Below, in pieces: positions 24,001 through 42,000 of a stretch of 64,000 nucleotides of DNA (position 1 is its first letter; every line of letters starts with the position of its first letter). The stretch is from the sequence record NZ_CP013691.1, one strand, 5' to 3'. The DNA is from a plasmid. The position numbers are program-made.

Positions 24001-27000
24001 AAAGAAAGAGAAAGAGCATTTGAATTTAGAAACATGAAATAAAAAAAGAGGCTGTATTAAATACAGCCTCTTTTTTAATAATCATTAAAAACTAATTCTA
24101 TGTCATAATTTACATGTGGTTCATGTGGCATTTCCATTTCAATATAATTACCTAGTTCATCATAAGCTTCAACATCATAGAAGAACGTTTTTCCTATAAT
24201 CTTAAATTGATGTGTTCCAAAGTCTTCAAAGAAACTCCTAGATAATATTTTATTATCATACAAAGTATCACAAAATAAAACATAGACAGTATCACCTATA
24301 TTATACTTATCAGAATTAGGAAAGTAATTTAAAAAAAATCTGTTATCACCTTCTATCCATTCTAATTTAATATCTTCAAACTCTTCATCCTCTCCTTTTA
24401 TATTTCTATTAACTATACTATCAATAAGTACATTTCTTGTTATTTTTCTATTGATATTTATCTAATTTTAATATTTTTATTATTTGAATTTTGCATTTCA
24501 GATTTAAGCATTTCGTTATAATCAACATATCCATCATATAAATTTCTTTGATCATGTATATCAGAAAAAGAAAAAGCTTCTTTAAAACAAATCACTGCCC
24601 TATCTCCAGCTTCATCGTTATCAAGTAACAAATGATATTCCTTATAAGGAATATTTTCTATTAAGTTTTTGTAAATATCAATTTCATATTTAACCTTGTC
24701 ATCAAGGTTTTTTAATTCGTCTTTAAAAACGTTTCTCAACTTATTTAAAGCGATTGAATAGTTATCCTCCTCTTCAAAATTCAAATAAGATACTGTATTT
24801 AAAATTTTGAAAGTATAAGCTTCTTCTGCATTTGGATACTTAGTAATAAATGATAAAAAATCAAACATTCCCTCAAAAATAGCAACTTTATCTTTTCCTT
24901 TATTTATGGTTGTAACAGCCTTATCCCCTATGCTTGATTTCAATAGTTTATTTCGTAATTCAAATCCGCCTTTATCATTTTTTAAACCCAATGCAAACTG
25001 TTTTCTACCTTTCAATTCAAACTCGATTTCTTTAAAGTATTTAGAAGCTATCTCTAAATTTATTCCGCGTTCTTCAACATAATTTTTCAAAGGAAAAGAA
25101 AATAAATTTTTTACTTTTAGTAACACCATCGAACTTTGCTGTTTAGCAACATCTTTAAAAACAGTAGTCGATATAGTAGATAAAGTTCCCTTTCTATTTT
25201 CTAACTCTAACATAGCATGATGGAAATCATAACCGTGAATCAATTGAACTAAATCAATAATATTTCCACCCTTTCCGATTCCAAAATCGTACCAGACATT
25301 TTCTTTTGTATCAATTTTAAATGAAGGCGTTTTATCATCTTCTCTGAGCGAAAACCATAAATTATTTCCAACAGATTTTGCTACTTGGATTCCTATAGAA
25401 GATAGATAATCTTCAATTTTAATTTGCAATGCTTCATCTCTTGTCATTTACTATTTCTTTTACTTGAGAAAAAAGTCATAGAAATAAAAACTATTTCCAT
25501 ACGATCTCAAATTAGACAATTCGTTTTTGTAAAACGTATTCATAAGTTGAATATAACGTTCATAATAATCACTCGTAATAGTAAACATAATTGGTTTAAT
25601 ATCTGTGTGATTATAGCGACTTAATGTATCTCTATCAGCTGGACCTCGTTTAGCAAAAAATTTTTTATCTGACTCACTAGGCTCCAAAAGTTCTCCATAT
25701 TTTTTAATATAGAGCTCTTCTACCATCTCAATCGCTACACATAAAAAAGATGAAGTTGAATACACTCCAATCTGTCCTATGCTTTTAAAATAATTAAAAG
25801 CCATATCCATATATTCAGTAATAACTTCCTTATTAACATTAACTGTTCTCAAGGATTTTTTTGCCTTTTCTTTTATTGTTGGTGCAGCTGCTAATTCTGT
25901 AAATTCAGTTTTTGTATTTTTAAATCTGCTTTGTACAGCAGATTCTTTTTTCTTTTTATCAGTCATGATTTTTAAGCAATTTTTTCAATTCGTTCTATTA
26001 ATTCTTTCCCTACTTTATCAAAGTCTTTACATGATTTTGATTTATTATCAAAGGAGTATATCGTTTGTCCTATCGCGCTCGCATGTTTAATTTGAGTGTT
26101 CTTTCTAATGTAATTTTTCATTAAGAAATCGCCCGCTGTATCTTCAACCACTTTGTATGTATCTTTAAATATTGTTTCATTTTCAGATACAATTGAAAAG
26201 ACAATCCCCGCAATTTGCAAATTAGGATTGCTCTCCGTTTTAATTCTGTTGATAGAAGTTGAAATTTTAAATACAGCTGATACTGAATTTGTATTTGGGT
26301 CAGTTGGTATGCAAACGTAATCTACTGCATTCAATACAATCTCATTTAATGTCAATCTACTTTTTATAATAGGTTGTGGTTGACAATCAATCAAGATATA
26401 ATCAAAATTATGTTCTATATTTTCAATTGCCTTAGATAGCATTTTTTTTGTCAAGGTCACCTCTAACAATTCTGAATACCCGTCAACCAGGTGCAAGTTC
26501 TTTTCTATACCTACTGGAGAAAAACTTCCCTCGCCTAGCAGAAAATTATAAATGGAATAATTGTCAACCTCTTCATCAAATAGCCCTAAATTTTGACTTA
26601 AATCACGTTGTGGATCCGCATCAATTAAAAGCACTTTATTTCCCTTCTTCGCCAAGTATGCACCTATATGTGTAGTTAAGGTTGATTTTCCTACCCCTCC
26701 TTTTTGATTAATAAAAGCAATCTTTCTCGCCATCATTTTTATTGTTCAGTATTGCCCCGCTGTCCCCCGTTTGTTGATATTTTTTAAAAGGTTATAAGTA
26801 CAAATTTATACAATTTTATAATTACTTACAAATATATAACAAATTAAAACTATATAAATTAATTAATTAATTCGAAATACAAAGAAAATCAAACAAACAA
26901 AACATATAAAACATTAATAACCAACAGTTTAATTTTGAATAATTTATATAACAAATTTAATTGTTTTTAATTATATAAATTATTATATTTGCTCATAACC

Positions 27001-39000: not shown

Positions 39001-42000
39001 AAAACGGCGTCAAAACTATAATATTTCATACTTAAATTAGGTCTTATACACCTATTTAAGATACAAAAATCTTTCTTCTTAAAAAAGTTGTAGAAAACAA
39101 ATATACATTTTAAATTATTTAAATAATTTATATAACAAATTTAATTGTATATAATTATTTAAATCACTATATTTGCTTATAACCTTTTAATAAAATTATT
39201 GATAATGAAAGTAACACATCTAAAAAAAGATTGTATTCAGAAAGAATATACCTACAAAAACCAACTTATAATTGAATTCGAATACTGGAACAATCCAATA
39301 TCATATTGGTGTATCGATAATTGGAAAGTAGAAGAACTCTTTACATTCAAGCATTCGGATATTAATGCATATGACATAACTATTGAAATTAGAAGTGCTG
39401 CAATGCCCAACGGAGAAACCCATTACGGATTATATTGTAATGCTCTTGATACTTCCAAACAACCTTATAGATATCCTGGTTATCATGAGCACACGAGGGG
39501 GAAAGACTACCTCACCGCAAAACAAGGATTACTAATTGAGCTTAATTCGATAATTGAATTTAGATATCCTCAATCTCATTGGAAAGAAATAAGCCAATGG
39601 ATAAAAAACAACTACACAGGGCAAACCACACTATTTTAAGTAACAAATATGAGCAAGAAGGTCTAAAGCCTTCTTGCCCAAAAAAAGTACAATTATGCAT
39701 CAATTTATAATAAGAGCCGTAAAAAATAAGAAAGAGGATCCCTTTGGGATGACAGTTAATGATGAGCACGTATATTTCTTTTGTTCTTCATTAAAAGACC
39801 TCAAGGCAACTATGAGACATATTAACCCTCCCGGATATAGAATTCATTCAGTTAACTGGTTCTCTAAGTATATAAAGCTATTTAATAATGATTTGACATT
39901 ATATGATGGCTTATTTGGGCATGAAAAATTTAGAATAGTCCGCATTTTTGAAGTTCCTTCAGATTACACTGATTTCAATTACACAAATAAATCTCAACAA
40001 ACATATACTTTAAAAATATTCAATAGAACCGCTTTGCCCTATTTGGAAACTAAATTCAAAACAGTGTAAATAAAATATTATGAGTAATTTATCTCCCTCT
40101 TTTAGTTTATAAAAACGACCGTTTTACTATACTCAATTCTTATTTTACTTTTCTTATCCTTTTCAAATAAAAACAATGTTTTTTAGTTTACATTGTGGTT
40201 TACTTTCAAAAACAGTTTACTATATTTGTAACTAACCTTTTAATAAACTTTTTAATATTTAAATATGATAAACTACACAGACAATCCTACGGGATTACAC
40301 ATTGAGGATTCTTTCACTTATAATAAAGTAGATCCTTTGATCAAACTTTACAATAAATTAAATCTTCTTTTAAAAGACTCCAGCATGATCAAGATTGGAT
40401 GTTATGAAATAACCAGGACCATTCTAGATGCTGAATTAAATATCAGAGTCTATTCAACATCCGATTTTTCTTACTTTGATATTAACAAAGATAATTTAGG
40501 TGATTTCTCTTTTCACACTGAAAGAGGATCTAGAGAAACGTTACTGACAGTTGAACAAGCAATTTTTAATATAACTGAATTGATGGACTAATTTTTCTTT
40601 TCCTCAGAAAACCTTTTAATAAATATCGAATGAAACATCAACATTTATATGACCTAATGGAAATTAGTTCAATCATTTTCCTATGCGTCTTAATAATTAT
40701 TACATTGGCTATCAGCTTAATTAGATATTACAAACGAAAAAAAACAAATTAGATATGAATTCAGTTATTCCCTCGTTGCTTAATTCCCTCATGGAAAAGT
40801 ATAAAATCAGTGCAGAAGATGCTGAAATTTTCTTAAATGAAGAATACCAGGAACAAACCTCAAAATCGACGTATGGCGGAGCATCTTATACTCAAATAAT
40901 TCAAATATGGCTTGATACTCTAGCAAAAGGAGAATCAATAAAATTAGATATGTTCCTTATAACAAAATTGCCATTCATAAGAATTCCCCATTTAACAGCA
41001 GTTCTAGGATTTTATGACGTCCTACTCGAAATGAAAGACACTTACAACAGCTCATATATTTCATTTGAAGAGAAGATAGACTCTATCTGCAATACAGTAG
41101 ATAATAACATTTATAAAACATACGATAATTTTGTTATTCCTATCAGCCTAAATAAAGTAATTCAATGGGGACTTTACCAAAATTTAGAAGTAGTAAGTAG
41201 CTTTTTCTCTTCAAAAGAAAACAAACATTTTACTTATGACTATAACGATTTTAAAAATGATGAAATAGCAATTAATGAAGCAAAAAAAATATTGGAGAAC
41301 ACTTCTATTGATGTCGTTTATTTCAACATTATAGGAACTCCTTTTGCAGAATATGAAAGTGAATCATTATTTACAATTCCTTTCCTAATTGAAAATATCC
41401 ATACTAGAGAGTATAATAAAAATACTGAAGCATATACCTACACTAAACTTAAAGCTGCTTCTGATTTAGAACTCTTGGAGTTTATACTAAATGAAACATC
41501 ACTATATGATCAGCAATCTTCAATGTAACCAATGTTCAATAGAAAGACAATAATCGAAACTATATGATTTTTGGATATGCACGTGTTTCAACTAGTGACC
41601 AAAATATTGAGTCACAAATTGAAGAATTAAAAAAACTAGGAGCTGAGAAAATCTATTCAGACAAAGGTTCTGGAAAAGATTATAATCGAGTTGAGTTTAA
41701 ATTACTTTTAGAAAATTTGCGCGAAGGAGATACATTAGTAGTTACTAAATTGGATCGAATAGGGCGCAATTTAAAGGACTTTATAAGCCTATTTGAAGAA
41801 TTCGGAAAGAAGAGTATAAAAATTGAAATAAACTCCTTAAAATTAGATTTTACAACATCTGAAGGGAGAATGTTTGCTAATCTTTTCGCGAGTATTGCCC
41901 AATTTGAACGCGAACTCAACAGAGAACGCACAATGATTGGATTGAGAGCAGCAGCAGCAAAAGGGAGGAAAGGAGGAAAGCCTAAAGGACTTTCTCCAGC

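Follow-up and report, generated by a model that had tools for sequence, protein, structure and literature searches.

The window analysed here is a 64,000-nucleotide stretch of the plasmid sequence NZ_CP013691.1, which by Pfam and RefSeq annotation is a Bacteroidota-type conjugative multidrug-resistance plasmid of Myroides. Within the window, the block between parA and a resolvase gene (26.7-40.7 kb) holds repeated non-coding DNA in front of unrelated genes on both strands. The favoured reading, with a probability of roughly 0.5, is that these repeats are plasmid-lineage-specific expression cassettes, in which host sigma-A promoters are combined with a common operator-like box and a reusable leader without a Shine-Dalgarno sequence. 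A preliminary description had treated the repeats as one promoter and leader module preceding at least 14 transcription units. The repeats exist and greatly exceed chance expectation, but that description merged three separate elements (box, promoter and leader core) and over-counted the units, since there are four complete copies and the box alone marks ten promoter regions.

Promoters and complete modules

A scan of the block for TTG-N(17-23)-TAnnTTTG returns eight intergenic promoters, which serve parA, RadC, p69, the p73 operon, the methyltransferase gene, p105, p131 and p144. In all eight the spacer is exactly 20 nt, and the earlier assignment of TAnnTTTG as a -7 element is borne out by this geometry and by its match to the flavobacterial sigma-A consensus. 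In Flavobacterium psychrophilum the corresponding sigma-A box lies at -12 to -5 and the median 5' untranslated region (5'UTR) is 24 nt (PMC9723704). On that placement, transcription is expected to start about 5 nt downstream of the -7 box, which would put the RadC start near 26996 and give a 5'UTR of 24 nt, equal to the flavobacterial median. Judged from their sequence, it is therefore highly likely that the TTG-N20-TAnnTTTG elements are ordinary host sigma-A promoters.

The complete module, of about 80 nt and consisting of box, TTG-N20-TAnnTTTG and leader, precedes only the genes at 27020, 31583, 36918 and 39205. The -7 consensus is present in all four copies, whereas it is absent from the copy at 27552 and from the box and iteron units described below. 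Parts of the module also occur at the genes 27625, parA (26736), 31154 and 40265, which had been credited with the whole of it, but each of these is incomplete. The inverted-box promoters of p69 (from 28686, minus strand) and p105 (from 33449, minus strand) had been overlooked, as had the four box and iteron units. The promoter regions are as follows.

26938-27019, plus strand: complete module before RadC; box 26938-26957, -33 TTG ending at 26963, -7 element TATATTTG at 26984-26991, expected start ~26996, leader core 26997-27010
31502-31582, plus strand: complete module before the C5 DNA methyltransferase gene; -7 element TACATTTG at 31548; 98% identical to the RadC copy
36919-37034, minus strand: complete module before p131; 5'UTR lengthened by a G+C-rich insert CGGGGAACAGCGGG at 36940-36953
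39122-39204, plus strand: complete module before p144; 99% identical to the p131 copy over 78 nt, inverted, 2.1 kb apart
27552-27624, plus strand: decayed module before p133-p87 (gene 27625); box with one mismatch, -33 element TTC, no -7 consensus, core ACCCTTTTAATAAA
26737-26831, minus strand: parA promoter and leader; TTG-N20-TAAATTTG, -7 element 26801-26808; core (one mismatch) 26780-26793, at -57; G+C-rich insert 26756-26769; no box within two mismatches
31155-31251, minus strand: promoter of the p73-p72-PcfJ-PcfK operon; -7 element 31189-31196, N20 spacer; inverted box 31232-31251 (about -48 to -67); no leader core
28687-28829, minus strand: p69 promoter; -7 element 28765-28772, N20 spacer; inverted box 28810-28829, common to a divergent box and iteron unit
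33450-33555, minus strand: p105 promoter (gene 33449, minus strand); -7 element 33490-33497, N20 spacer; inverted box 33536-33555, common to a divergent box and iteron unit
40221-40264, plus strand: region upstream of p108 (gene 40265); -7 element TATATTTG and leader core; no box, no TTG at 17-23 nt

The complete modules are 86-99% identical to each other. The RadC and methyltransferase copies agree at 98% (26934-27017 against 31498-31581), those of p131 and p144 at 99% in inverted orientation (36962-37039 against 39117-39194), and the two pairs are 86-92% identical to one another. The genes behind them are mutually unrelated in an all-against-all BLASTP comparison, in which the only paralogue pairs of the block are p72/p73 (49%) and p415/p347 (40% amino-acid identity over 93 residues). 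The modular reuse proposed at the outset is thereby upheld. The same motifs recur in an independent assembly (L004), which rules out an assembly artefact, and in at least five other samples short-read contigs break off within the modules, the usual behaviour of a repeat. The copies are flanked neither by terminal inverted repeats with a target duplication nor by attC ends, as looked for in a miniature inverted-repeat transposable element or an integron cassette.

Two further observations concern individual modules. The p131 and p144 copies form a 78-nt inverted repeat around a 2.1-kb segment holding p218, p271 and an iteron region, and homologous recombination between them could invert this segment, although the inverted form was not seen in the available sequences. 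The parA and p131 5'UTRs alone share an insert of about 35 nt with a direct repeat CGGGG-N5-CGGGG (CGGGGnACAGCGGG; 26756-26769 and 36940-36953, minus strand), which has no stable RNA fold. It could be bound, as an operator, by the partition protein whose gene follows parA.

The upstream box and the box and iteron units

The 22-nt box ATTTATATAACAAATTTAATTG occurs in four exact copies and in nine with up to three mismatches, where 0.02 are expected by chance, and its 20-mer AATAATTTATATAACAAATT occurs ten times with up to two mismatches (0.02 expected), nine of them on the plus strand. The consensus, AATAATTTAyaTAACAAATT(TAATTG), extends over 20-26 bp and is 95% A+T. A scan of the whole element, as had been suggested, places all ten boxes in intergenic DNA adjoining promoters, and none of the three motif families has a further copy anywhere in the 84-kb plasmid record.

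Anchored alignments and information-content profiles identify the box as a sharp conservation island between unrelated flanks in 10 out of 10 copies, within which single C/G positions are kept. The copies have a common, sharp 5' edge whilst their 3' extents vary from 17 to 84 nt, a pattern more in line with retention of the box itself than with one copying event. A box lies within 70 bp upstream of seven of the eight intergenic promoters. Four of these boxes are direct, at a fixed 46 nt before the -7 element (about -58 to -39) and abutting the -33 element. The other three, at the p69, p73 and p105 promoters, are inverted and lie at a nearly fixed 36-39 nt before the -7 element (about -48 to -70), and these three promoters lack the leader core.

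Four boxes (28810, 33536, 35053 and 36370) are not followed by a standard promoter. They lead instead into a 17-mer GGCGTCAAAACTATAAT, an invariant stretch of about 55 nt and a palindrome TTGTATACAA.

28810-28932, plus strand: box and iteron unit, followed by a terminator and no open reading frame (ORF)
33536-33682, plus strand: box and iteron unit before p415
35053-35204, plus strand: box and iteron unit before p347, the p415 paralogue
36370-36518, plus strand: box and iteron unit, followed by a terminator and no ORF

The 17-mer has nine copies against 0.02 expected, all on the plus strand, and it also forms four iterons spaced by 21 bp at 38828-38907 and a single one at 39006. Read on the minus strand it contains TAGTTTTG, a perfect -7 consensus. 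Each unit contains a conserved 8-codon ORF, ATGAAAAGCAACAAATTAAAGAyTTAG (MKSNKLKI/T). No consensus RNA structure was found for the units, and no Rfam family matches the box, leader or box and iteron elements. No homologues of p415 were found. The units upstream of p415 and p347 are 72-94% identical in nucleotide sequence, as against 40% amino-acid identity for the proteins, and this far better conservation of the upstream DNA points to selection or gene conversion.

A bidirectional terminator hairpin, AAAAAGAGTCTAGAAATGGACTCTTTTT, is used three times (28345-28368, 35005-35032 and 36322-36349), and at 35005 and 36322 a box follows within about 25 nt. Such composite junctions could mean that the repeats serve mainly as recombination joints, through which unrelated genes are inserted, lost or shuffled in a plastic region in the manner of the PeSL elements of phages (PMC2839356, PMC4122927). 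In favour of this are the recurrence of the terminator and box junction, where a 118-nt stretch that takes in the box is 91% identical at 34995 and 36312, the cassettes holding unrelated or orphan genes, and the 99% identical inverted pair around the 2.1-kb segment. However, the available variants, which are few and near-identical, differ by an insertion sequence (IS)/integrase insertion and by changes beyond the SLT gene. None of these differences is bounded by a module, and no inverted or permuted arrangement was seen. As the principal role of the repeats this is unlikely, though it is compatible with the other explanations.

The leader core

The 26-nt leader is found exactly at 26992 and 31556 only. 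Its 14-nt core AACCTTTTAATAAA, by comparison, has 13 copies with up to one mismatch against 0.41 expected, and a fourteenth copy, with a 1-nt deletion, lies at 29359-29379. In anchored alignments the core is a second conservation island, separate from the box and with unrelated flanks. All 12 gene-proximal copies have the orientation of their gene. Nine of these cores begin between -20 and -25, one begins at -31, and two begin at -57. The leader had been described as ending 0-3 nt before the ATG, which is true of the canonical copies only.

Five genes (28054, 29358, 30656, 30901 and 40630) that had been counted as transcription units have the leader only. Their copies lie in gaps of 11-38 nt after the preceding stop codon, and they are cistron junctions inside operons rather than the beginnings of transcription units.

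28033-28053, plus strand: leader-only initiation region between p133 and p87
29359-29379, minus strand: leader-only initiation region before PcfK; 1-nt deletion; overlaps the last codons and stop of PcfJ
30657-30677, minus strand: leader-only initiation region between p72 and PcfJ
30902-30926, minus strand: leader-only initiation region between p73 and p72; core with one mismatch
40610-40629, plus strand: leader-only initiation region between p108 and a 40-aa ORF
20392-20412, minus strand: orphan leader core that immediately follows the SLT terminator and has no gene downstream

A core match at 19622 lies inside an ORF and is probably due to chance.

Given a RadC start near 26996, the leader would make up the entire 5'UTR of about 24 nt, with the core as the 5' end of the mRNA. 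The leader is A-rich and has no Shine-Dalgarno sequence. A core placed at -21 puts adenines at -13, -12, -10, -9 and -8, and the canonical leader also has an A at -3. In Flavobacterium johnsoniae, where initiation proceeds without Shine-Dalgarno pairing, measurements show that adenines at -3, -12 and -13 promote it (PMC6847099). Eleven initiation regions were folded, and the short leaders, at 0 to -3.8 kcal/mol, are no more stable than shuffled sequences. It is highly likely that the repeated elements are promoters and initiation regions. As an element of translation initiation the leader can be separated from the promoter, since operons also use it internally. The simplest reading of its sequence is that the core acts as a generic, efficient ribosome-loading site.

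The core might instead be a specific post-transcriptional site for a plasmid protein or small RNA, comparable to the start-associated sequences of Cluster K mycobacteriophages (PMC3203893). Its presence at 12 start sites, internal junctions included and at -20 to -25 in nine, and its confinement to one region of one mobile element are in keeping with such a role. Nevertheless, duplex energies with the candidate RNAs (the box and iteron units and the Flavo-1 RNA described below) are no better than with shuffled sequences, and an A-rich, unstructured core already favours initiation in Bacteroidia (PMC6847099), so that an extra factor is not needed; a specific site of this kind seems quite doubtful. 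The same low expectation applies to a more elaborate proposal, in which the core AACCUUUUAAUAAA would be a dedicated translational enhancer or control site read by bS1 or by a plasmid RNA-binding factor. Together with the box it would then form a two-layer switch of transcription and translation, firing anti-CRISPR-like, methyltransferase, RadC and partition genes together on entry.

Regulator site or copied promoter

Seven of the eight well-formed promoters have a box at a set distance, and it is for this reason that the box is read as the site of a regulator, at about even odds. The favoured reading would work as follows. The box would be bound by one trans-acting DNA-binding protein, most likely a plasmid-encoded repressor. 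In an established host the genes for partition, RadC, the methyltransferase, PcfJ and PcfK (AcrIIA9-like), together with genes of unknown function, would be jointly repressed, and entry into a cell without the repressor would lead to a joint burst of expression. The leader would serve as a generic ribosome-loading site, including at internal cistron junctions, and cassette duplication or gene conversion, with selection on box and core, would have kept the copies 86-99% identical. The earlier suggestion of co-regulation through the box fits its conservation as an island and its association with promoters, but no binding protein was identified in the scans, and the suggestion is plausible only.

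Several observations weigh against a dedicated regulator. Pfam and NCBIfam scans of the orphan proteins, even at lax thresholds, named no regulator for the box. A single lead emerged, p87 (28054-28317), which matches the NikR ribbon-helix-helix domain below threshold (E 0.006), but its single-sequence AlphaFold monomer is all-helical and has no match in Foldseek searches of the PDB or in a PDB sequence search. The position of the box is unequal among direct, inverted and iteron-type units, and the copy at 27552 retains its box despite a decayed promoter. A dyad operator was considered and rejected: the box contains no conserved dyad, and an inverted partner is significant only in the RadC and methyltransferase copies, which are duplicates of each other. 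Moreover, no diverged relatives carry the module, so that selection and recency cannot be separated, and with two module pairs 98-99% identical over about 80 nt, recent copying alone could explain much of the similarity.

The last point leads to the explanation that a strong promoter and leader cassette was simply copied, by duplication or gene conversion, with no dedicated factor. The box would then be a UP-like, A+T-rich part of the promoter with no meaning beyond strong constitutive expression. UP elements of E. coli sit in the -58 to -39 zone, and this is the zone occupied by the direct boxes. The 95% A+T content of the box also agrees with this, the tandem cassettes at 33.5-36.5 kb are obvious duplications, and the motifs, being absent from the nearest relatives, look young. 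What copying does not readily account for is that ten boxes amid unrelated flanks have one 5' edge with 3' extents that differ, from 17 to 84 nt, that the inverted box keeps a near-constant distance from three other promoters, that it also fronts a different class of unit, the iteron type, and that single C/G positions within it are conserved. Simple copying is quite possible, but on balance it is the less likely account.

Occurrence elsewhere

The window from 26700 to 41600 is 100% identical to Myroides albus P34 plasmid pMA84474 (NZ_CP102755.1). Small insertions and deletions distinguish the rest, and the window therefore comes from a sister plasmid of pMA84474. Database entries under the names Myroides odoratimimus and M. 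injenensis match PcfJ and ParA at 100% identity, and from there the homologues of both proteins fall directly to 30-48% identity. The ParA relatives that are 48% identical possess a -7 box and lack both the upstream box and the leader. All of the motifs are missing from Bergeyella pQD2021, the nearest plasmid cousin, whose relaxase is 50% identical. A Prevotella element was too compact for comparison. Exact-protein look-ups returned near-identical plasmids only, as short-read contigs breaking inside the modules.

Searches with the motifs gave a similar picture. The box pattern has no true match in 185,579 species genomes, with one chance match in a Clostridium metagenome-assembled genome, and blastn of the module against PLSDB returned only the plasmid itself. 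The -7 and leader pattern gave 61 unrelated single matches in metagenome contigs, none with module context and only four with TA at the -7 position.

Comparison with known systems

The closest parallels are the backbone regulons of other conjugative plasmids. In R388, ArdK represses five strong promoters of the maintenance region (PardC, Porf7, Porf12, Porf14 and Pssb), and repressed backbone promoters overshoot after conjugation (PMC3937220); KorA, KorB, TrbA and KorC are used comparably in RK2 (PMC4889941, PMC11790492). As with ArdK, StbA and KorA of IncW R388 and with the four regulators of IncP-1 RK2, a short sequence recurs here at many backbone promoters in the maintenance and establishment part of the plasmid, the promoters look strong and consensus-like, and partition and anti-restriction-type genes are among those served. 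Unlike those systems, no cognate DNA-binding protein was found in the Pfam and NCBIfam scans, the host belongs to the Bacteroidota and the promoters are of the -33/-7 type. The box is also asymmetric and lies upstream of the -33 element rather than over the core promoter, and it is the whole promoter and 5'UTR, not the operator alone, that is near-identical in four copies.

The PeSL cassettes of T4-like phages (PMC2839356, PMC4122927) are likewise short, near-identical promoter/terminator cassettes, set in a plastic region among genes that are unrelated and for the most part orphans. For PeSLs, cassette-bounded insertions and deletions are documented, whereas module-bounded rearrangement was not seen among the few variants here, and the element is a plasmid rather than a phage. 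The SAS/ESAS motifs of Cluster K mycobacteriophages (PMC3203893) resemble the leader core in being about 13-14 nt long, in lying just upstream of start codons in one part of the genome, including those of genes without their own promoter, and in that a subset has an extra upstream element. In contrast to SAS, which has a Shine-Dalgarno core 3-7 nt from the start codon, the core described here is A/U-rich, lacks such a sequence and starts 20-25 nt upstream, as expected in Bacteroidia. The TAnnTTTG box, upstream TTG, 5'UTR of about 24 nt, A at -3 and -12/-13 and low structure are all features of Bacteroidota sigma-A promoters and of initiation without Shine-Dalgarno pairing (PMC9723704, PMC6847099). 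Genome-wide, however, these follow a loose consensus, and here one exact sequence is reused.

Single-stranded promoters of the Frpo/ssi type (PMC11541004) are also homologous non-coding elements before several operons in a region that probably enters the recipient first. The modules might on this analogy fire from the incoming strand before its complement is synthesised. Relative to the likely oriT region, the block is on the side away from the relaxase, and it contains anti-defence-type genes as well as a methyltransferase, as leading regions do (PMC11541004), and a hairpin of box and spacer can be drawn in the four complete modules. This hairpin is nevertheless weak as single-stranded DNA (-7 to -9 kcal/mol) and not beyond shuffled sequences (z +0.4 to -1.8), with the -7 element outside it and the -33 element in its loop. 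Frpo elements are long hairpins that rebuild -35 and -10 in duplex and the leading-region genes they serve lie on one strand (PMC11541004), whereas the modules are about 80 nt long, are not significantly structured and lie on both strands, with the p131 module, the PcfJ/PcfK operon and parA on the minus strand and RadC and the methyltransferase gene on the plus strand. A single-strand promoter is accordingly a highly improbable account of the modules.

A distant relative, the Bacteroides fragilis plasmid CP103159.1 (L081; PcfJ 31% identical), has three long non-coding repeats that are 98-100% identical (14077-14406, 18456-18786 and 22132-22459), each just upstream of an operon on the same strand. 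The first genes behind them differ (PcfK; DUF2958; ribose-phosphate pyrophosphokinase/SLOG), and one copy folds as single-stranded DNA at -54 kcal/mol (z -3.1). These repeats are candidates for Frpo-like single-strand promoters in Bacteroides.

The reuse of regulatory cassettes on mobile elements is a known theme, and the pattern points to plasmid-wide co-ordinated expression such as other plasmids and phages show, rather than to a novel type of system. The present instance is specific to its plasmid lineage and comes from a phylum for which the theme has not been described, and the separable leader, which lacks a Shine-Dalgarno sequence, is its most distinctive trait. Very little work has been done on how genes are controlled on conjugative plasmids of the Bacteroidota, and in Myroides of pig and clinical origin plasmids of this family bear tet(X)-type, carbapenemase, erm and sul genes. 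A box common to about ten promoters offers a handle on the plasmid's master regulator and permits a test for an R388-like burst of establishment and anti-defence genes after transfer, although the finding would be ordinary if the box is merely part of a copied strong promoter. The 24-nt leader provides a compact, naturally repeated promoter-plus-leader part for Flavobacteriia, and its repetition is a natural experiment on start-site quality in a phylum without Shine-Dalgarno pairing.

The plasmid and its other features

The layout of the window, with functions from Pfam and RefSeq annotation, is as follows.

4.7-19.4 kb, plus strand: coupling protein and tra genes
20479-21393, minus strand: SLT
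21393-22988, minus strand: DUF5712 protein, presumed relaxase
24458-25447, minus strand: CHC2/Toprim primase
25972-26736, minus strand: ParA
26.7-40.7 kb, both strands, between parA and the resolvase gene: the block studied here, with RadC, PcfK, PcfJ, C5 methyltransferase and many orphan genes
41564: resolvase, the only recombinase near the block
42-62 kb: IS-rich multidrug-resistance region

The block is the maintenance, establishment and anti-defence region of the conjugative plasmid, and the presumed relaxase and tra genes lie on the opposite side from it. For 26700-41600 the annotation of pMA84474 names ParA, PcfJ, a cytosine methyltransferase and proteins of the JAB/RadC and AcrIIA9-family/PcfK types. 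Non-coding DNA makes up 24% of 26737-40754, as computed from the ORF coordinates, and contains all ten boxes.

Within the block, the dense non-coding repeats at 38520-39120 comprise the iterons, three 34-nt tandem repeats (~38590-38691), two copies of AAAACTAGGAAAAATAAA (38533-38585) and an A+T-rich stretch. This region resembles an iteron-type origin or a partition site. None of the plasmid's proteins was recognised as belonging to a Rep family. The Flavo-1 RNA motif (RF01705) is found at 31361-31442 on the plus strand with 43.5 bits against a gathering score of 42. It sits between the divergent promoters of the p73 operon and the methyltransferase gene, about 110 nt downstream of the box at 31232, and no function is assigned to Flavo-1 in the literature (PMC9723704). 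The p69 ORF (28477-28686, minus strand), which has its own consensus promoter, encodes a strongly hydrophobic protein of 69 aa. It is unannotated in RefSeq but is called as a gene in another assembly, and its product could be a peptide of the entry-exclusion type or a small membrane toxin.

Downstream of SLT, the region 20030-20500 contains two direct copies and one inverted copy of TTATAATAATTTCGACA. All variant contigs share this region, and it is beyond it that their contexts diverge. A promoter-like TATATTTG site on the plus strand at 20357 points into the end of SLT.

The coupling-protein gene is a single 825-aa ORF in pMA84474 and is divided into several ORFs in the window (region 4700-7156, e.g. 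6008-7156), and the first 6 kb of the window is about 80 nt short relative to NZ_CP102755.1, in small insertions and deletions. The split gene reflects either sequencing error or decay. The RefSeq record NZ_CP102755.1 itself has a 14.6-kb terminal duplication (1-14588 = 69887-84474), which is probably an artefact of circularisation.

In the resistance region (42000-62000), four near-identical ORF pairs of 300 aa and 383 aa (e.g. 45581-47436, 48905-50883, 52249-54227 and 58308-60286) are of a kind labelled integrase and IS91-family transposase in the plasmid record. The region also contains two IS1595 copies and a Tet(X)-like FAD monooxygenase gene (43979-45145), and the plasmid record annotates sul2, aadS, blaMYO-1, ere(D), erm(F) and blaOXA-347 there.

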